Shown piece after piece: positions 3,060 through 30,517 of a DNA stretch of 49,454 bases. The stretch is from positions 1-49,454 of the forward strand of contig DAIDLF010000022.1 of the NCBI GenBank assembly GCA_027449645.1, in the 5' to 3' direction. This DNA comes from Candidatus Parcubacteria bacterium (GTDB lineage: Bacteria; Patescibacteriota; Minisyncoccia; UBA6257; 2-01-FULL-56-20). Position numbers and translations under genes: made by a program. The notes beneath the pieces are model-generated. The model ran no database searches and was not told where the DNA came from. It saw only the letters and a list, made by a program, of their open reading frames with translations. The stretch's first letter is position 1. Each line of letters begins with the position of its first letter.

Positions 3060-4574
3060 ATGGCAGACGAGGCAAACGGAAAAACGGACGGCGGGAGCAA
3101 CCTGCGCTGGTGGGTGCTTTTCACGGTCATTTTTGGCACTTTCCTCGGGAGGCTTGACCAGACGGTGGTAAACCTTGCCCTGCCGAAGATCATCGGCGAT
3201 TTCAGCATCAGCGTATCCAGCGCGGCGTGGATCTCTACGGCGTATATCCTCGCGAATGCGGTCTTCGTGCCGGTTTGGGGCAAGCTCGGCGACACGGCGG
3301 GACGCAAGAAGATCTACCTGATCGGTTTCATCGGCTTTACGATCGCCTCGGGACTTTGCGCGCTCGCATGGAACCTGAGTTCCATGATCGTCTTCCGCAT
3401 CATCCAGGGGTTCGCGGTGTCCGCGGATTATCCTACGGCGATGGCGATCATCGCCATCACGTTCCGCGACATGAAGGAGCGCGCCCAGGCGCTCGGCATC
3501 TGGTCGGCGGCCTTCGCCGCCGCGTCGGTCTTCGGCCCGCTCATCGGCGGCCCGCTCATCGACAACTTCAACTGGCGCGCGGTGTTCTTCATCAACATTC
3601 CCCTTGGCGTCGTCGGACTCTTCCTCGCAATGGTCTTCATTGACGAATCGGTGGGTGAGAAAAAGAGCGTGAAGTTCGACTGGTGGGGCGCGGTATCCCT
3701 CGGCGCCGCACTCGGCTTCCTTACGCTCGTTTTGGACCAGGGACAGACATGGGGATGGACGTCCGGACCGAGCATCCTGTGCTATCTCGCGACCATCGTT
3801 TCCGCCGCATGGTTTTATTTCGTGGAGATCCGCGAGCCGGAGCCGATCGTGGACTTCAAATTCTTCAAAATCGGCATTTTCAACACCACCCTGCTCAATA
3901 ATTTCATCGTGTTCATGGCGCTCATCGGGGCGATCTTCCTCATCCCGATCTTCGCGGAGACCTTCCTCGGCTATAACGCCACGCAGACCGGCTATCTCTT
4001 CATCCCGCTCGCGATTGCCATGGTGATCGCGGCACCGCTCGGGGGAAGGCTTATTGGGAAAGTGAAGCCGAGCTACGTCATCTTCTGGAGCACGTTCGTC
4101 TGCGGCCTCGGCATCCTCATGCTCGGCGGCATTGATGCGCGCTGGACGGCCATGGATATCATCATTCCGATGTGCATTATGGCGTTCGGACTCGGCTTCG
4201 GCATGGCCCAGCGCACCAACCTGGTCGCGGTGGCCGTGCCACACGAGGAAATCGGCGAGGCCTCGGCCATCCTTGCGCTGGTGCGCAATATTTCGGGAGC
4301 GTTCGGAGTGGCGATCTTCAGCACCCTGCTCAACAATGCCACCAATGGCAACGTGTTCAAGGCCGTGTCGCACAGCGTGATCAACGTAGTGAACAATCCC
4401 CGGGTCACCCAGCAGTTTGTGGGCCTTATCGAGCTCAAGGCGCAGGTCGCGGGTTACGCGACGGTCTTTCAAGTGGCTGCCTGGATCGTCATCATTGGAT
4501 CATTCACTTCTTTCCTGATCAACGTACCGCGCGAGGCGGTCACTGCCGAACATCACGTGGTCGTCGAAGGATAG
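3060..4574 (+). CDS. MFS transporter, DHA2 (EmrB/QacA-like, about 14 TMS) drug:H+ antiporter
   Basis: 504 aa. Contains LDQTVVNLALPKI and GKLGDTAGRKKIYLIGF motifs with many TM segments. Lies in an operon with the two HlyD genes. Confidence 0.85.
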   Translation: MADEANGKTDGGSNLRWWVLFTVIFGTFLGRLDQTVVNLALPKIIGDFSISVSSAAWISTAYILANAVFVPVWGKLGDTAGRKKIYLIGFIGFTIASGLCALAWNLSSMIVFRIIQGFAVSADYPTAMAIIAITFRDMKERAQALGIWSAAFAAASVFGPLIGGPLIDNFNWRAVFFINIPLGVVGLFLAMVFIDESVGEKKSVKFDWWGAVSLGAALGFLTLVLDQGQTWGWTSGPSILCYLATIVSAAWFYFVEIREPEPIVDFKFFKIGIFNTTLLNNFIVFMALIGAIFLIPIFAETFLGYNATQTGYLFIPLAIAMVIAAPLGGRLIGKVKPSYVIFWSTFVCGLGILMLGGIDARWTAMDIIIPMCIMAFGLGFGMAQRTNLVAVAVPHEEIGEASAILALVRNISGAFGVAIFSTLLNNATNGNVFKAVSHSVINVVNNPRVTQQFVGLIELKAQVAGYATVFQVAAWIVIIGSFTSFLINVPREAVTAEHHVVVEG

Positions 4575-23591: not shown

Positions 23592-23659
23592 AATAAGAAA
23601 GGAGGATGCGCGCGCAGGCGTCGTTGATTTATCCTTTGATCGGAAAGGGGAAGACACCT

Positions 23660-25081
23660 ATGACGCAAGAGCAAGCTCTCAACATCCTCAAACTCGGCAA
23701 AAATGTTTTCCTTACCGGTGCGCCAGGCGCCGGAAAGACATATCTCCTTGCACAGTATATAGACTTTCTCCGATTGAACGATGTGAACCCCGCGATCACG
23801 GCCTACACGGGCATCGCGGCAAGCCATCTTAACGGGAAAACCCTCCATTCCTGGGCGGGGCTTCGGCCGGGCCCGCTTCGTGCGTTCGCGCAGGAGCGCG
23901 ACAGGGTGCGCAACAATCAGTTTTTGACCGCAAAGATTACACGGGCAAAGGTGCTCATCATTGATGAGATCTCCATGCTCAGCCCCGAACTTTTTGAACA
24001 GGTTGATTTCATCTGTAAAACTGCGCGGAACTCCATGGAACCTTTCGGAGGGTTGCAGCTCATATGCTCGGGCGATTTCTTCCAGATACCCCCGGTCAAC
24101 CAGGAAAACGGGCGGTTCGTACTCGATAGCGGGATATGGGAGGAGGCAAAAATGAAAATATGCTATCTCCATGAGCAGCACCGGCAAGGAGACCACAAAC
24201 TTCTCGGAATACTTGAGGAAATTCGGAGAGGGGATGTGGGCGCGGATGCCATTGCGCTCCTCAAAAGCAGGGTCGGGGCAAAAATCGATGCGCCGATCGG
24301 CGTCGCCCGGCTCTATACCCATAATGAAGACGTCGATGAGATCAACGAAAGGGAACTCCGCAAACTTACCGGCCCCGAGATCATCTATGAGGTGCATTCA
24401 ACCGGAGACGCCAAGGTCATCGAAAAGCTCAAAAAGGATTACCGGATAAAAAATATCAGCCTCAAAAAGGGCGCGCGGGTGATGTTCACCAGAAATAATG
24501 AGGGGATGGGCTATGTGAACGGGACCCTGGGAGAGATAGTTGATTTTGACGGGGACGGCGATCCCGTAGTGATGACCTTTGACCAGCAGAGGATCGCCGT
24601 GGCGCGAGAGCAATGGGATCTTGAGGACAACGGAGAAACAAAGGCGTCGGTTTGGCAGGTCCCCTTGAGGCTGGCATGGGCTATCACGGTCCATAAAAGC
24701 CAGGGCATGACGCTCGACGCTGCAGAGATAGAGCTTTCGCGCGCATTTGAAGAGGGCATGGGTTATGTGGCGCTTTCCCGGGTGAAACGATTGGAGAACC
24801 TATCCCTTATCGGATGGAATGATGTCGCGCTCAAGGTGAATGACCGCATCAAAAGGATCGATGATGAATTCCTGGAGCAATCAATTGAAACGGAGAATTA
24901 TTTGCACGGTCTTGGCGCCGAGCGCGTTGACCGTTTACAGAGGGAGTTTGTGGCGGCCATGAAAGAAGAAGGAGAGGCCCCAAAAGTGCAAGCCGGGGCA
25001 TTCCATTATGAACCGGACGAAGTTCCCGTCATTGATTTTGAGGGATACGGATCAATCAACGCCGAGGATATCCCTTTCTAG
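23660..25081 (+). CDS. PIF1/RecD-like SF1 DNA helicase
   Basis: Walker A is LTGAPGAGKTYLL and Walker B is LIIDEISML. Also contains GDFFQIPPV and HKSQGMTLD. The ATG at 23660 is preferred over the 23606 start in the ORF track. Confidence 0.8.
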   Translation: MTQEQALNILKLGKNVFLTGAPGAGKTYLLAQYIDFLRLNDVNPAITAYTGIAASHLNGKTLHSWAGLRPGPLRAFAQERDRVRNNQFLTAKITRAKVLIIDEISMLSPELFEQVDFICKTARNSMEPFGGLQLICSGDFFQIPPVNQENGRFVLDSGIWEEAKMKICYLHEQHRQGDHKLLGILEEIRRGDVGADAIALLKSRVGAKIDAPIGVARLYTHNEDVDEINERELRKLTGPEIIYEVHSTGDAKVIEKLKKDYRIKNISLKKGARVMFTRNNEGMGYVNGTLGEIVDFDGDGDPVVMTFDQQRIAVAREQWDLEDNGETKASVWQVPLRLAWAITVHKSQGMTLDAAEIELSRAFEEGMGYVALSRVKRLENLSLIGWNDVALKVNDRIKRIDDEFLEQSIETENYLHGLGAERVDRLQREFVAAMKEEGEAPKVQAGAFHYEPDEVPVIDFEGYGSINAEDIPF

Positions 25082-25142: not shown

Positions 25143-25622
25143 TCAAGAAGTGTAACGGACCGCAGTTTCCGTGTTTACGGCAGCCTGCACGGAGAGGATC
25201 TCGCGCGAGCACTTCATCATGCCCGCAACCCGAAGGTCTGTCTGCATGACACTCCTCGCGAGATCGAAAACGTGTTTTTCGAAGGCATGGAGCTGGCCCT
25301 TGGTCAGGCAATGCTTCAGTCTCGCATTGACCGAGTACTGATGGCTGCTCAACTGCTCCCCTCTAGTAATTTCAAGGGGGTTATTCATGCCATGGTCGCG
25401 CCAAGGGTGCTCTTCCTCTGCAATAGCAACATAGTTTGCTACTATTGCATCAAGGCGGCACTCCTCGATCTTTGTCCCCTCGCCAGTTCGCGAGTATAGT
25501 TGCGCCCGACGCTCGTAGGTGGCCACAGCCTCATTGGCCATGGTGATCACGAATGTCGCGCCCACGCAATAGCTCCGATTCTGTGGGGACACTCCGTATA
25601 TTAGTTCGTTTAGGGTCCTCAT
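25143..25622 (-). CDS. Hypothetical protein (159 aa), island-associated
   Basis: Strong SD (AAGGAGGG) 8 nt upstream of the ATG at 25622. GC looks intermediate by eye. No recognised domain. Confidence 0.6.
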   Translation of the reverse strand: MRTLNELIYGVSPQNRSYCVGATFVITMANEAVATYERRAQLYSRTGEGTKIEECRLDAIVANYVAIAEEEHPWRDHGMNNPLEITRGEQLSSHQYSVNARLKHCLTKGQLHAFEKHVFDLARSVMQTDLRVAGMMKCSREILSVQAAVNTETAVRYTS

Positions 25623-25707
25623 CGAGAAACCCTCCTTTGCTTGAACTTGCTGCTGAGTTGAAAATCAGCTGTTTATAATATTATCACTATTCAGCGATAC
25701 TGTCAAT

Positions 25708-25737
25708 AGTGCTGGCCGGCTTGGACGATGTTCGAAC
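25708..25737 (-). repeat. Degenerate copy of the tRNA-Gln 3' end and trailer (candidate distal att remnant)
   Basis: AGTGCTG..CCGG..GGA..TTCGAAC here compares with AGTGCTGCCGGGCAGGGATTCGAAC at 30381-30405. About 22 positions match, with two indels, in the same orientation. Confidence 0.3.
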
Positions 25738-25757
25738 TGTATTGTGGTATAATACAG
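25737..25757 (+). promoter_or_regulatory. Extended -10 promoter (TGGTATAAT) embedded in a 7-bp inverted repeat
   Basis: TGGTATAAT at 25745-25753. CTGTATT at 25737-25743 pairs with AATACAG at 25751-25757. It lies upstream of the AT-rich + strand ORFs. Confidence 0.5.
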
Positions 25758-25871
25758 GCATAGGGGCTTTAGGTAGATTTTACATATAATCTATTGAAAA
25801 GTGGATATTATGCGCTTAAAAGATTGGCATTGTCTTCAAGTCGCGATGCTTGTAATCATTACCGTTGAGCG

Positions 25872-26093
25872 ATGAAAGAGAAGAATAAAAAATTTTGGCG
25901 GTTTATTTTGGGGGTTGGTGCAATATCTTTTTTAGATCAGATAATAGAAAATAAAGAGGAGGAAATCAAAGAATTAAGGGCGAAACTTGAAGAAGCTCGC
26001 GAAAAAAAAGAACCACAGTTTGGTACATATCTCTATGAAACCTATGGCATAGAAGATGAGAATGACCTAGATGCGTGGTTTAATGAAGAATAG
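25872..26093 (+). CDS. Small hypothetical protein with one TM helix and an acidic coiled-coil tail (73 aa)
   Basis: ATG start, AT-rich codons. Contains FWRFILGVGAISFL, then EEEIKELRAKLEEAREKK. Confidence 0.5.
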   Translation: MKEKNKKFWRFILGVGAISFLDQIIENKEEEIKELRAKLEEAREKKEPQFGTYLYETYGIEDENDLDAWFNEE

Positions 26094-26204
26094 TTTCGGT
26101 TCGATAGGTTGAAGTACAGACTGGTTTGGAGATGTCTAGTATTAAGGTTTAATAAAAATGCAACAAGGAACTTAGAATTATAATCAATTATAGATTAAAA
26201 AATT

Positions 26205-26453
26205 ATGATATTTACTGATTTTGTTGAAAGGCTACTTCAGTTAAATGTTGATCGCGACAAGATATTTCTATTGGAATCCTTTGCCGCCAAACACGCAGAA
26301 CAAACCTTTTTAAAGGATGGAGAGCCTAAGGAAACCACTGCTCAAATTAGCATGAGAATTGAATTTTCAAGGGGGAAAATTTTGAGCGAATTTGAAGAAA
26401 ATATTAAAAATGGAAAATCGGTAGAGTATTTAGTCGATTTGTTATTAAAATAG
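26205..26453 (+). CDS. Small hypothetical protein (82 aa)
   Basis: ATG start, same strand and composition as its neighbours. No recognised domain. Confidence 0.45.
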   Translation: MIFTDFVERLLQLNVDRDKIFLLESFAAKHAEQTFLKDGEPKETTAQISMRIEFSRGKILSEFEENIKNGKSVEYLVDLLLK

Positions 26454-26492
26454 TTTCCCATTTTTTGGATTGTTTCTAGGTTTATATAAGGT

Positions 26493-26972
26493 ATGAACGA
26501 CTATAAAGCTGTGATAAAATCAGGCATATTACCAATAGAAAGCAATCCCGAATTGTTAGTGGAATACGGCAGAGCTTTTGCGCGGATTAACACTCTTGAA
26601 TATTTACTCGAAGAGTTAATCATTGTTAAAGGGGGCTTGGGATCGGTCAAAAAAGATCTGAGGGAGAAGTTGGTTAATAAAAAAATGTTAGGTCAAAAAA
26701 TAGAGCTTGCAGCTACCTTGCTCGAGCCAACGCTTATAAGTAAGCTTCGGTCTTTAAATGATAAGCGAATTCTGTTAGCTCATAATGCCACGGCTCAAGA
26801 AATAAATAATTCTGGTGACGAACAGAAACCGGGAAATTATGTTATTGGGATAGGCGAGAAGCAAGAAATTTTAACAAATAAATTTTTATCAGATATCAGT
26901 AATCTAGCTCAAGAACTTTTAGTAGATTTCCACGCAGCCTTTCTAAAGGGAACCAAATTTGAACTAAAGTAA
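26493..26972 (+). CDS. Hypothetical all-alpha protein with an HEPN-like Rx4H motif (159 aa)
   Basis: LRSLNDKRILLAHNAT resembles the R-x4-H (R.K.AH-type) catalytic motif of HEPN/Abi RNases. The size and helical character also fit. Confidence 0.4.
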   Translation: MNDYKAVIKSGILPIESNPELLVEYGRAFARINTLEYLLEELIIVKGGLGSVKKDLREKLVNKKMLGQKIELAATLLEPTLISKLRSLNDKRILLAHNATAQEINNSGDEQKPGNYVIGIGEKQEILTNKFLSDISNLAQELLVDFHAAFLKGTKFELK

Positions 26973-27878
26973 TCAGGAATACCCCGCAAGCATCCGCTTA
27001 TACGTGAGTGCTGTTGAAACAAGCGCACTGTTTTCTAAAACGAGCAGGGCAACGAGTACATTCTCAGGCTTCACGCCGTGCATCGAACCGAGAAAGTAGC
27101 GAGATAAACTCGTAATGCCATAAGCAGTATCAAATGGATCGTAGGGGATCATATCTTCGTATTTTCCAGCATCAAGGTCTTTTGCGAGAAGTTTCAGGTC
27201 AAGTCGCTCGAAGGGTTCGCAGCCAAGCTTTGTTTTTATTGATTCACCAAAAGAAGGGAAGCCCCTTTTAATATATTGAAACATGAAGCTCCCGATGGTA
27301 TTAAGTTTTATCTTTTTTATTTTGCCTGTATTTGTAATAAGAACCTCATCGGAAAGGAAAGCGAGTGATCGTCCAAGATCGGTATCGGTCGCTTTCAGCT
27401 GTGCGAAGGTTATTACGCTTCCAACAAGCATACTACTCACAACGTCCATCGTGTTGCGTTTCATATATTTGAAGAATGCCTCCTTTGCTTCTCGAACATC
27501 CGAAGCGAGTTGGCGTTTCTTCTTCATTCTGAGGTCTTCCGCAACGCATTCAAGAGCAAGATCAAAATCTTCGTTGTTGTCAGCATGATCGATGATATAG
27601 TCGATCTGGAAATGAAGTATGTCCTTCATCATATTATTTAAGGCGTGTTCATTGTCGCCCTCGGGAATCCTAAGCTTACCCGCAAGCCGTGAGAAGCTTT
27701 TTTCAAGATTTTCCCTCGATATGCGCTTTTCTTGATCGTCTTTGCAGCGTCCTTTTTGATATTCGGAACAGATATAATAAGCCCCGCTCTTGGTGAGGGT
27801 ATGGCCTGAAACGGCAAATTTAAGCACGCCTTTAGGAAAATAGGAGGGTGCTTTGGGGGTGAAGGCTGATCGAGGCAT
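26973..27878 (-). CDS. Hypothetical protein whose N-terminus resembles the zinc-ribbon/coiled-coil segment of a large serine recombinase (possible remnant or fusion)
   Basis: FPKGVLKFAVSGHTLTKSGAYYICSEYQKGRCKD....LAGKLRIPE here compares with FPLRGFMTCDVCGCMLTATLQKGKYVYYYCTNGKKICDQ....LFGQLRIDE in the 28927-30432 product. The first Cys pair is lost here. Confidence 0.45.
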   Translation of the reverse strand: MPRSAFTPKAPSYFPKGVLKFAVSGHTLTKSGAYYICSEYQKGRCKDDQEKRISRENLEKSFSRLAGKLRIPEGDNEHALNNMMKDILHFQIDYIIDHADNNEDFDLALECVAEDLRMKKKRQLASDVREAKEAFFKYMKRNTMDVVSSMLVGSVITFAQLKATDTDLGRSLAFLSDEVLITNTGKIKKIKLNTIGSFMFQYIKRGFPSFGESIKTKLGCEPFERLDLKLLAKDLDAGKYEDMIPYDPFDTAYGITSLSRYFLGSMHGVKPENVLVALLVLENSALVSTALTYKRMLAGYS

Positions 27879-27966
27879 AGAGTTACACGCCCTTTATACC
27901 TCAAAATCCTCATTTTTACACGTTCGCTCATCCACTACCGACAAACCGCCCCCGTTGTAGGTAGTG

Positions 27967-28176
27967 ATGCCCAATTTTAGCCAAGAACTCATATCCGAGG
28001 TGATCGCCTATTTTGGCGAGCGGGAGGACCGCCTTATAGTCCCCGAAGAAGCGGAGGCGTATTTGGCATCCTTAGCCGAGCTGTATTGGTGCTTCACGGA
28101 GTCGATGAGGCGCAGGGAGTTGGGCAGGAGGGCCGATCCGCCGCAGGCGGGCGGCCCAAACCTTCCCCTGACTTGA
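27967..28176 (+). CDS. Small hypothetical protein upstream of Rep (69 aa)
   Basis: ATG at 27967; the ORF track starts it at a GTG at 27964. Its stop TGA at 28174-28176 lies inside the putative nick-site motif. Confidence 0.35.
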   Translation: MPNFSQELISEVIAYFGEREDRLIVPEEAEAYLASLAELYWCFTESMRRRELGRRADPPQAGGPNLPLT

Positions 28177-28197
28177 TATCCCCACATAGTTGTAATC
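28168..28197 (+). other. Candidate rolling-circle origin or nick site (phiX174-like ACTTGATAT core)
   Basis: CTGACTTGATATCCCCACATAGTTGTAAT lies immediately 5' of the Rep ATG. As I recall it, the phiX174 origin is CAACTTGATATTAATAACACTATAG. Confidence 0.4.
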
Positions 28198-28198
28198 C

Positions 28199-28930
28199 AT
28201 GGGAATTCATTTTAGAAAATATGGCAAAGTCATCGAGATCACGGAAATCGAGCACGAGCCGTCCAAAGTACGCGTATATGCTCCGCGAATCCGCCCTGAT
28301 GTTCACGGGTCTCGGCGATCAGATAGTATTCGAAGGACAAGGACAATATGTCTGTGGCGCGTGTTTGCTGGCGTTGAAGAATTTGGAAGCCCGCTCCTCG
28401 TTACTCTTACCTTCGACGGAGACGCCTCGGATGCCTCTTATGCAAACGATACCCTTCGCCGCTTCCAAGTGCGGTTGCGCGATCAATATCCTGAAGCCCA
28501 ATCCCTCTTTGTTCCCGAATTATCCCCACGAGGACGCATCCACTTTCATGGTTTGCTCTTTAACCTGCCAATGCATCTCGGCGATACGCGCCAGGGTAGA
28601 CGGATCGTGGAGCATGGCACGGAACGAAAAGACAGGATTATCGCCCAGCTTTGGGGCGAAGGTTTTGTGGATGTCCGAAAAACTGATGGTTCTCCAAGGT
28701 TGGGATATTATATCGCCAAGTACATCACAAAGGGGTCAGAGCAAACCCTCTTTAACGCCATGAGGATTCTTCGTATCTCTCGCGGATTCCCTCGGCAGAT
28801 TGAGATCAGTGGCCCCATGGCCGAGGAGCTTAAACGCCGTTACGACCCGAAAACACCAATCAAGGAGTGGGAGGGTAATAATATCTTCCTTGGCAAGATC
28901 AAACGGAAAACGTATATTCAAGACACATGA
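28199..28930 (+). CDS. HUH-superfamily rolling-circle replication initiator (phiX174 gpA / Microviridae VP4-like Rep)
   Basis: 243 aa. Motif 1 is LLVTLTF, motif 2 is RIHFHGLLF (HUH), and motif 3 is GYYIAKYITKG (YxxKY; compare phiX gpA FYVAKYVNK). Also contains LWGEGFVDV. Confidence 0.75.
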   Translation: MGIHFRKYGKVIEITEIEHEPSKVRVYAPRIRPDVHGSRRSDSIRRTRTICLWRVFAGVEEFGSPLLVTLTFDGDASDASYANDTLRRFQVRLRDQYPEAQSLFVPELSPRGRIHFHGLLFNLPMHLGDTRQGRRIVEHGTERKDRIIAQLWGEGFVDVRKTDGSPRLGYYIAKYITKGSEQTLFNAMRILRISRGFPRQIEISGPMAEELKRRYDPKTPIKEWEGNNIFLGKIKRKTYIQDT

Positions 28931-30432
28931 ACTATATTCTCTATTGCCGCAAATCGTCTGAGGCAGAAGATCGCCAAGTCCTTTCTCTTGATTCTCAAGA
29001 GACGGAGCTGAAGCGCCTCGCGGCGGCGGAAGGATATAAGATCATCGAGGTATATCGCGAATCCATGTCGGCAAAGGCTCCGAATCGGCCGCTCTTTGAT
29101 GGGATGATGAATCGGATCGAGAAAGGGGAGGCGCAAGGTGTACTTTGTTGGAAGCTCGATCGTCTCGCACGCAATCCCGTGGACGGCGGCAAGATAAGCT
29201 GGCTTCTTCAGCGCGGCGTGATCCAATCCATTCAAACTCATGACCGCGTGTATCGTCCTTCTGATAATGTCCTTATGATGGCCGTCGAGTTCGGTATGGC
29301 GAACCAATACGTTCTTGATCTAACCGCGAACGTGAAGCGCGGTAATCGGGCGAAGCTTGAAAAAGGTGGCTGGCCGAATATGGCCCCCTATGGATATTGG
29401 AATGATAAGAATGATAAATCGGTGAAAATCGTTTCCGAAAACGCGGCCGTGGTGCGCCGTGCTTTTGAACTGCACGCTACGGGCTTATACGATCTCCGCG
29501 AAACTGCGGATCGGCTCTACGAAGAAGGGCACCGCACACCGAGCGGCAAGCGGGTCGCCAAAAGCATGGTGCATAAAATCCTCCGTAATTCATTCTACTG
29601 TGGCATTATGCTCAAGGACGGCGCGTATTATGCGGGCAAGCACGAGCCGATCGTCTCAAAAGACCTTTTTGATAAGGCGAATGACGTGCTTGATGGAAAG
29701 AATCATTCGAAAGTCCAAAAACATTTCTTCCCACTCCGTGGCTTTATGACCTGCGATGTATGCGGCTGTATGCTCACCGCTACGCTCCAAAAGGGAAAAT
29801 ACGTATATTACTATTGCACGAACGGAAAAAAGATTTGTGATCAGCGCAAAAAACACCTTACTGCCAAGGATGCCGAAATTCTGATCGGCTCGCTTTTTGG
29901 CCAGTTACGGATCGACGAGCGCATTTTGGATATCGCTTTTAAGGCCTACGAGGAGAGGTTTAAATACGAGGAGGTTTCCGTGGAGGATCGCCGTCAAATC
30001 GTCCAAAATTCGATCTCTGCGCTTGAGGAGCGACAGAATCGCCTCGTGGATAGTTTTGTGGCGGGAATCACGCCTAGCGGCGTATATGAGCAAAAAATGA
30101 CCACCCTGAGGAACGAGAGGGTTGCGCTTCAAACTCAGCTTCAGCAGATCGGACAAGGGAATGATCCGTCAGAAATCACTTTCGAACAAATCAAAAACGT
30201 ATTTTTGACAGCAAATTCAATAGCTAATTCGTTCCTCGATGGATCGGATGAAGAAAAACGAGAGTATGCTCAAATTTTACTTTCGAACGTTTCGTTGAGA
30301 GATCAAAAAATCCAAAAATATCAGTTCAAACCCGTCTATCAGGCCATCGCAAATATACCAAAAAAAGACGATTTTGAGAGAGTGCTGCCGGGCAGGGATT
30401 CGAACCCCGATAGATGGATTCAGAGTCCATAG
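28927..30432 (+). CDS. Large serine recombinase (integrase-type)
   Basis: 501 aa. The catalytic N-terminus is ILYCRKSSEAEDRQ...LDRLARN. A recombinase domain follows, then a zinc ribbon (CDVCGC...YYYCTNGKKIC) and a coiled coil. An ATGA start/stop overlap couples it to Rep. The last 16 codons overlap tRNA-Gln. Confidence 0.85.
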   Translation: MNYILYCRKSSEAEDRQVLSLDSQETELKRLAAAEGYKIIEVYRESMSAKAPNRPLFDGMMNRIEKGEAQGVLCWKLDRLARNPVDGGKISWLLQRGVIQSIQTHDRVYRPSDNVLMMAVEFGMANQYVLDLTANVKRGNRAKLEKGGWPNMAPYGYWNDKNDKSVKIVSENAAVVRRAFELHATGLYDLRETADRLYEEGHRTPSGKRVAKSMVHKILRNSFYCGIMLKDGAYYAGKHEPIVSKDLFDKANDVLDGKNHSKVQKHFFPLRGFMTCDVCGCMLTATLQKGKYVYYYCTNGKKICDQRKKHLTAKDAEILIGSLFGQLRIDERILDIAFKAYEERFKYEEVSVEDRRQIVQNSISALEERQNRLVDSFVAGITPSGVYEQKMTTLRNERVALQTQLQQIGQGNDPSEITFEQIKNVFLTANSIANSFLDGSDEEKREYAQILLSNVSLRDQKIQKYQFKPVYQAIANIPKKDDFERVLPGRDSNPDRWIQSP

Positions 30433-30455
30433 TCCTACCATTAGACGACCCGGCA
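30385..30455 (-). tRNA. tRNA-Gln (anticodon CTG)
   Basis: Hand-folded 71-nt cloverleaf: TGCCGGG TC GTCT AATGGTA GGAC T ATGGA CTCTGAA TCCAT CTAT CGGGG TTCGAAT CCCTG CCCGGCA G. It has U1:A72 and G73 as in bacterial tRNA-Gln. CCA is not encoded. Confidence 0.9.
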
Positions 30456-30489: not shown

Positions 30490-30517
30490 ATTATACGCAC
30501 CCTGCGCTTTTTATCAA
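30490..30517 (-). promoter_or_regulatory. Near-consensus promoter for tRNA-Gln
   Basis: On the minus strand, TTGATA (30517-30512), a 16 nt spacer, then TATAAT (30495-30490). This is about 35 nt upstream of the tRNA 5' end. Confidence 0.6.

Follow-up and report, generated by a model that had tools for sequence, protein, structure and literature searches.

Features of the locus

The 49,454-nucleotide (nt) contig DAIDLF010000022.1 of a Candidatus Parcubacteria bacterium, called the window here, carries a gene for a serine recombinase, int, whose 3' end runs into a tRNA-Gln(CTG) gene of the opposite strand (Table 1). The initial annotation had placed the end of the recombinase open reading frame (ORF) 48 nt inside this tRNA gene, and the ORF, ARAGORN and Rfam agree on that overlap. 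It holds 15 sense codons and a stop (TAG), and the last 16 codons are indeed the complement of the tRNA, covering slightly more of it than had been listed, namely the discriminator, the acceptor 3' strand, the T-arm, the variable loop and the entire anticodon arm. The tRNA gene itself is intact: the Rfam tRNA model is matched over its full length (1-71) at 30385-30455 of the minus strand with 61.4 bits, ARAGORN sets the limits at 30384..30455 on the same strand, and the earlier description of a folding tRNA with its own near-consensus promoter is borne out by a perfect acceptor stem of 7 bp and by a promoter score of 11/12 for TTGATA-16-TATAAT. The encoded protein, Int, ends in ..ERVLPGRDSNPDRWIQSP before the stop codon, a C terminus also written at another length as ..DDFERVLPGRDSNPDRWIQSP; its residues 1-487 come from DNA of the element described below and residues 488-501 (PGRDSNPDRWIQSP) from the antisense strand of the tRNA gene.

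Table 1. Positions of the features discussed; all lie in the window except those of the last row
Feature	Position	Strand	Basis
int, large serine recombinase (LSR), integrated form, 501 aa	28927..30432	+	ORF; Pfam PF00239, PF07508, PF13408
host tRNA-Gln(CTG), intact, B' half of attR	30385..30455	-	Rfam RF00005; ARAGORN
overlap of int ORF and tRNA-Gln, 48 nt	30385..30432	.	ORF, ARAGORN, Rfam
proposed integrated element, 4,673 bp, ends uncertain by up to 4 nt	25715..30387	+	GC profile, junction comparison
attR, approximate limits: P arm in int (AAAAAGACGATTTTGAGAGAGT), core, B' arm = tRNA acceptor + T-arm (CCGGGCAGGGATTCGAACC)	30362..30406	+	family attR consensus
attL, approximate limits: B arm (host/cassette flank), core, P' arm GCCGGCTTGGACGATGTTCGAAC	25694..25738	+	sequence reading
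attR core GCTG (tRNA nt 74, 73, 72, 71)	30384..30387	.	identity blocks of 23 elements
attL core GCTG	25711..25714	.	identity blocks of 23 elements
stranded free-form int 3' end, 24 codons (AGLDDVRTVLWYNTGIGALGRFYI) + stop	25715..25789	+	sequence reading
rolling-circle-type Rep, overlapping the int start	28199..28930	+	Pfam PF23343 7.6e-14; PHROG 3419
promoter of tRNA-Gln, TTGATA-16-TATAAT, score 11/12, host side	30490..30517	-	promoter scoring
promoter in B arm, TTGACA-17-TAATAT, for 159-aa ORF 25622..25143	25678..25706	-	promoter scoring
cargo loci of related elements	L014 4439-4879; L096 885-1358; L098 3795-4565; L013 351-959		Pfam

Int carries the Pfam domains Resolvase (PF00239, 4.9e-20, residues 4-148), Recombinase (PF07508) and Zn_ribbon_recom (PF13408). 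The R8 and S10 residues of the catalytic domain, the latter being the serine nucleophile, stand in invariant alignment columns, as do five cysteines of the zinc ribbon (276, 279, 281, 297 and 304), and the predicted structures contain long helices at 313-407, corresponding to a coiled coil inserted in the zinc-ribbon domain. Int can be aligned to SPbeta SprA across residues 6-458, and a Foldseek search with the model of a 67%-identical homolog matched full-length SprA, phiC31, Bxb1 and LI with E values down to 3e-22. The order of domains (catalytic, recombinase, zinc ribbon with coiled coil) is that of the Listeria A118/LI integrase, SPbeta SprA, Bxb1 and phiC31. Judged by these sequence and fold comparisons, the enzyme is a full LSR with its catalytic, recombinase and zinc-ribbon/coiled-coil regions all present; no annotated phage or plasmid integrase was more than 30% identical to it.

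Between about 25 kb and 30.4 kb of the window the GC content falls from the ~59% of host DNA to 35-52%. The genes of the element that we delimit in this region are three small orphan ORFs (+), a 301-aa orphan (-), a 70-aa ORF, rep and int. Small cargo ORFs lie at 25872-26093, 26205-26453 and 27964-28176. The five cargo ORFs gave no significant match to Pfam or PHROGs, the entries listed for a 73-aa ORF being below the Pfam cut-offs.

When 8,000 candidates from a protein search were scored, 4,203 proved to be significant relatives of Int, labelled Patescibacteria or Parcubacteria wherever the source names them; no published description of this family of the ultra-small Patescibacteria was found in the literature searched. 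We surveyed 80 genomic loci encoding relatives, of which 77 reach the C terminus. Since a minus-strand tRNA adjoins the int 3' end in 59 of the 77, and in exactly the register of the window in 52, the overlap is not due to chance; the tRNAs are those for Gln, Ser, Ile, Trp, Arg, Lys, Ala, Tyr and Leu, with 16 anticodons. The C termini of the relatives fall into two classes, tRNA-antisense tails such as ..LPDLDSNQD..SYH, in which DSN corresponds to GATTCGAAC, the reverse complement of the T-loop, and free-form tails such as ..AVWDDVRT.., found on contigs of ~5 kb. Taken together with the junction analysis below, these results make it very probable that the overlap is the right attachment (att) junction, attR, of a 4,673-bp integrative element composed of a rolling-circle Rep, an LSR and orphan cargo.

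Attachment sites and position of strand exchange

The limits of attR given in Table 1 derive from a 50/40-bp LSR site model. Read from 25708, the left junction, attL, is caatAGTGCTGgccggcttGGACGATGTTCGAAC, the stretch 25708-25737 being AGTGCTGgccggcttGGACGATGTTCGAAC; read from 30381, attR is gagAGTGCTGccgggcagggATTCGAACc, with AGTGCTGccgggcagggATTCGAACc as the right junction. The sequence common to the two is AGTGCTG only (25708-25714 and 30381-30387). The P arm, in attR, consists of the int codons for ..PKKDDFERVL, and attL read in the int frame encodes VL-AGLDDVRTVLWYNTGIGALGRFYI followed by a stop, the P' arm encoding the free-form tail AGLDDVRT.... Comparison with circular forms had been proposed at the outset, and three relatives on Logan contigs (L013, L096 and L097) provided it. 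Each has a 30-nt terminal repeat, which we take to mark a circular contig, Logan assembling at k=31, and yields a circle (of 5,636, 5,693 and 4,903 bp, respectively) after its removal. The circles contain Rep and Int but no tRNA, and int continues without interruption into the alternative tail and through its ..D[DE]VRT P' motif. Moreover, the spacing of their codons (PK, 8 codons, junction, 3 codons, D-x-V-R-T) is that of the P arm of the window joined to the P' arm of attL. To judge by sequence, these circles are the free form of such elements, with an intact element site, attP, inside int.

The position of the crossover was narrowed by comparing 23 elements, the window's included, that occupy Gln, Ser, Lys, Arg and Leu tRNAs and in which attL could be located, 4-8 kb upstream of int. 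The identity block of each attL/attR pair holds the same 4 nt (23/23), while its total length varies from 4 to 16 nt. These core nucleotides are the complement of tRNA positions 74-71 (GCTG, GCGG, GTTG, GTGC, GTCC and others). Over the 23 elements the maximum left boundary of the blocks is 0 and the minimum right boundary is 4; strand exchange must therefore take place inside 30384-30387 and 25711-25714, which corresponds to int codons 486-487. The earlier claim that the crossover lies within or at the 3' end of int is thus supported, and the junction is located inside or at the end of the tRNA and not beyond it. An attL/attR identity of 7 nt in the window and 4 nt across the 23 elements also fits short att sites without a long repeat, as in phage and integrative and conjugative element (ICE) serine integrases.

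The earlier proposal that the element supplies or abuts the tRNA 3' half holds in its second part only: the remainder of the tRNA, 30388-30455, is host DNA, and the element can have brought in no more than the final 1-3 nt (positions 72-74), where attP and the host site, attB, do not differ. A classical tRNA island would carry the tRNA 3' half and recombine deep in the gene, and the displaced host half would be found at attL. Tyrosine integrases usually target tRNA 3' ends, and attL does show a scattered likeness to the tRNA end (GCTG, GGC, GGA, TTCGAAC). However, the tRNA 3' half did not turn up a second time in the window in a 50-nt search that allowed 3 mismatches, which led us to reject an element-supplied half; only 7 nt are shared, and the attL bases that follow GCTG are not complementary to the 5' strand of the acceptor stem. 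The attL motif TGGGACGAnGTTnGAAC, furthermore, is present whatever tRNA is targeted and also on the tRNA-free circles, and Pfam and PHROGs found no tyrosine recombinase in the island, the LSR being the sole recombinase in 25715-30387. A classical island is for these reasons very improbable.

All four core bases are matched in 23 of 23 pairs, though a serine recombinase needs only two, and from this we infer exchange at the inner pair, nt 72-71. The geometry of LI integrase points to the same pair as the most likely one, since with LI numbering the bases at index 2-3, within the 4-nt core, would form the central dinucleotide. The outer two core bases would then come from the element, their identity being maintained because selection favours a functional discriminator end. 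Beyond the core, P' matches its own tRNA at 3.0 of 6 positions compared with 1.9 of 6 for other tRNA types; because this likeness is weak, and 0/6 in two elements, mimicry of the acceptor stem beyond the core is not required.

The P' motif TGGGACGAnGTTnGAAC is kept in 24 elements, and the closest relative (78% identity), which lies at tRNA-Gln(TTG) on an unrelated metagenome contig, has a nearly identical P' arm. In this motif the third (wobble) base is practically fixed in the Val codon (T in 23/24) and in the Gly/Arg codon (A in 24/24), while the Gly/Arg codon may begin with G, C or A, and therefore the constraint on P' acts on DNA and not on the peptide. Indexed from the core, GTTnGAAC occupies positions 19-26 in P', the T-loop sequence ATTCGAAC occupies 14-21 in B', and GGGA lies at 11-14 in both. 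In LI integrase the zinc-ribbon motif is found at positions 16-24 of attP and 11-19 of attB, a shift of 5 bp with unchanged contacts of the recombinase domain (Rutherford et al. 2013, PMC3783163). The 5-bp motif shift that we observed, for the P' and B' halves only, agrees with the LI rule, and a shift of the outer motif between attP and attB is a trait shared with phage and ICE serine integrases. In the mechanism that we propose, Int would recombine attP with the tRNA end by strand exchange at a 2-bp core, reading the tRNA acceptor and T-arm as a B' half-site in which the T-loop ATTCGAAC serves as the motif of the zinc-ribbon domain; in attP the counterpart GTTCGAAC would be 5 bp more distant from the core, an arrangement known from other serine integrases.

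The resemblance of 25708-25737 to the tRNA end, with AGTGCTG, GGA and TTCGAAC in common and in direct orientation, might alternatively be the trace of an older integration, in which case the stretch would be a degraded second copy of the tRNA-Gln 3' end rather than an attP arm. The motif is, however, kept among elements at unrelated tRNAs and contiguous with int in the free circles, and its TTCGAAC does not coincide with the T-loop position but lies 5 bp away, as an attP half-site would be expected to. Recognition of both sites by one protein would in itself produce a resemblance to tRNA, and we therefore regard a degraded copy as very improbable.

Several observations weigh against our interpretation of the overlap as an LSR attachment junction. 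The P and P' arms have little dyad symmetry, and the B arm, contributed by the host flank, is not conserved across the family, which together leave binding of the fourth subunit unexplained. The lack of conservation in the B arm also suggests that the tRNA half dominates target choice. The exchanged dinucleotide is not pinned down by sequence, and searches of the orphan ORFs with Pfam and PHROGs brought up no directionality factor. Finally, a naive empty site was not recovered, the tRNA-Gln(CTG) loci of the same-genus genomes G002 and G020 being occupied by a short cassette together with an orphan P' site.

A spare inverted attP was not found in this element or in 22 related ones, where the best inverted match to the 56-nt attP was 25-29/56, the level of shuffled sequence. 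The divergent intergenic region upstream of rep holds, at 27900-27917, an inverted copy of 18 nt of the P arm (16/18 identical to 30361-30378; AAAAAGAnGATTTTGAG) without the adjoining P' part; it could be a half-site bound by Int or a chance match.

The two C-terminal tails of Int

Joining 25715-25789 to position 30387 would give a free-form Int of 511 aa with a 24-aa tail, compared with 501 aa and a 14-aa tail in the integrated form, in line with the earlier prediction that the C terminus differs between the integrated and the excised state. Among the 52 relatives in register, integrated tails range from 2 to 132 aa (median 18), as dictated by the tRNA sequence. In the AlphaFold model of the integrated form the tRNA-encoded tail (487-501) has a predicted local distance difference test (pLDDT) score below 50, whereas in a free-form homolog residues 483-502, on both sides of the junction, are modelled as a helix (pLDDT 73-83). 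Integration would thus remove a predicted terminal helix, and the tail of the integrated form is, on these models, probably an unstructured by-product.

A disordered tail and lengths of 2-132 aa that look unselected would also suit an incidental read-through, with the island boundary outside the tRNA and the int stop simply lost. Such an origin accounts poorly for an identical register in 52 of the 59 homologs that adjoin a tRNA, for family conservation that reaches the junction codon instead of stopping well before 30385, for an alternative in-frame tail exactly at the other end of the island and for the joining of the two halves in circular relatives, and we consider it extremely improbable.

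A precedent for an exchanged integrase tail is the Myxococcus phage Mx8, the Int of which is a tyrosine recombinase, unlike the serine recombinase of the window. In Mx8 attP lies within int, and integration creates a new int 3' end, converting intP to intX (PMC6070905, citing Tojo 1996 and Magrini 1999). The window element shares both features with Mx8, but the altered Mx8 protein behaves differently by experiment, whereas the P' tail motif of the window looks constrained as DNA and not as protein. We also considered a joint reading in which the tail swap is a built-in state switch, the helix giving way to whatever 2-132 aa the antisense strand of the tRNA happens to encode and Int changing in activity or directionality as reported for Mx8 IntP/IntX, and in which the lineage is in addition a naturally retargetable serine integrase. 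On the retargeting side, the zinc ribbon would read the universal T-loop, and the 4-nt core with the neighbouring acceptor-stem bases copied in attP would select the tRNA species. We hold this joint reading to be unlikely.

An attP inside int together with a tRNA target is also found in SSV1-type archaeal integrases, which are tyrosine recombinases, and there integration splits int into two inactive parts. The window int, in contrast, exchanges only its last ~24 codons.

Known serine integrases, insertion locus and cargo

Unlike phage and ICE serine integrases, which usually split a protein-coding gene, the window element targets the 3' terminus of a tRNA gene and leaves it intact; it differs from them as well in having attP inside the int ORF and in that only the tRNA half of attB is conserved. 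The serine recombinase of phiRSM phages is small, unlike the 501-aa LSR described here. Integration of serine recombinases into tRNA genes, which had been called unusual in the initial annotation, is termed rare in the literature, with phiRSM1 (tRNA-Ser) and eight Mycobacterium actinomycete ICEs (tRNA-Leu) as the examples (PMC3218068), and the phiRSM enzyme is described, in the title of Askora 2011 as cited in PMC3218068, as a resolvase-like serine recombinase. The window element resembles the Ralstonia filamentous phage phiRSM1 in combining a serine recombinase at a tRNA gene with a small rolling-circle replicon, its Rep matching the G2P-type family PF23343; unlike in phiRSM, no filamentous-phage structural genes were detected among its proteins with Pfam and PHROGs.

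The common view of serine integrases is that they insert at arbitrary sites, mostly in protein-coding sequence, and disrupt them, whereas this lineage, with thousands of members, would use tRNA architecture as one half of attB. Because exchange takes place at the last tRNA bases, an essential gene in a ~0.7-Mb genome would never be damaged. The attP/attB pairs over 16 tRNA species offer a natural test of the 5-bp zinc-ribbon-shift model, and the family could be a source of integrases aimed at tRNA-like sequences. It would account for the odd tRNA-overlapping C termini of many annotated Patescibacteria recombinase genes and for the accumulation of single-gene accessory cassettes beside tRNA genes in Patescibacteria genomes.

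The promoter in the B arm is, as read from sequence, a mark of the flank that adjoined the tRNA before insertion. A similar ..TGTCAA.. (TTGACA) flank directly follows tRNA-Gln(CTG) in G002 and G020, where no Rep-Int element is present; instead an orphan P' site lies 0.6-0.7 kb downstream of the tRNA, which itself neighbours dnaX (L009 near 3503 in G002, L011 near 95 in G020), with one gene between site and tRNA in the G002 locus. A related int occurs at the same kind of tRNA in G004 and G019, and in G021 the contig breaks at the tRNA; related LSRs are present in 11 of the 23 genomes of the genus, none above 48% identity. From these comparisons the dnaX/tRNA-Gln(CTG) locus looks like a recurrent insertion hotspot. 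Synteny of the left-flank DNA with same-genus genomes is not conserved, and the PIF1-like helicase to the left of the island (23606-25081) is found in relatives on contigs other than that of dnaX/tRNA-Gln, which explains why no clean empty site was obtained. Two of the PIF1-like helicase matches hold an in-frame TAG, and the region 23.0-25.7 kb may itself be variable.

Two further orphan P' sites (cgcggGCAGTGTGGGACGATGTTCGAAC and GTTGcggttgtggGACGAAGTTGGAAC), with no int nearby, were found in the window's own genome. One is on contig 20 (L099, 2521-2547), 1.06 kb from tRNA-Ser(GGA) (3611-3698), with a single 274-aa gene between it and the tRNA 3' end, and the other is terminal on contig 4, around position 690 (-). 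Both resemble remnants of this element family or cassettes of it that lack int, and the orphan sites as a group fit repeated insertion at the tRNA end with older material pushed outward. In addition, three related loci (L041, L059 and L061) have, upstream of int, a pair of P' sites in direct orientation separated by 0.5-1.5 kb, an arrangement that suggests tandem cassette arrays bounded by attL-type sites. The window's own genome also encodes a second LSR (contig 39, 17761-19032), 35% identical to Int over residues 2-351, which belongs to a different subfamily and the ORF of which ends in ordinary sequence without a tRNA. The cargo of related Rep-Int elements includes matches to the Pfam families ThsB_TIR, PycTM, R-HinP1I restriction endonuclease and NYN, the first three of which we presume to be of defence type.

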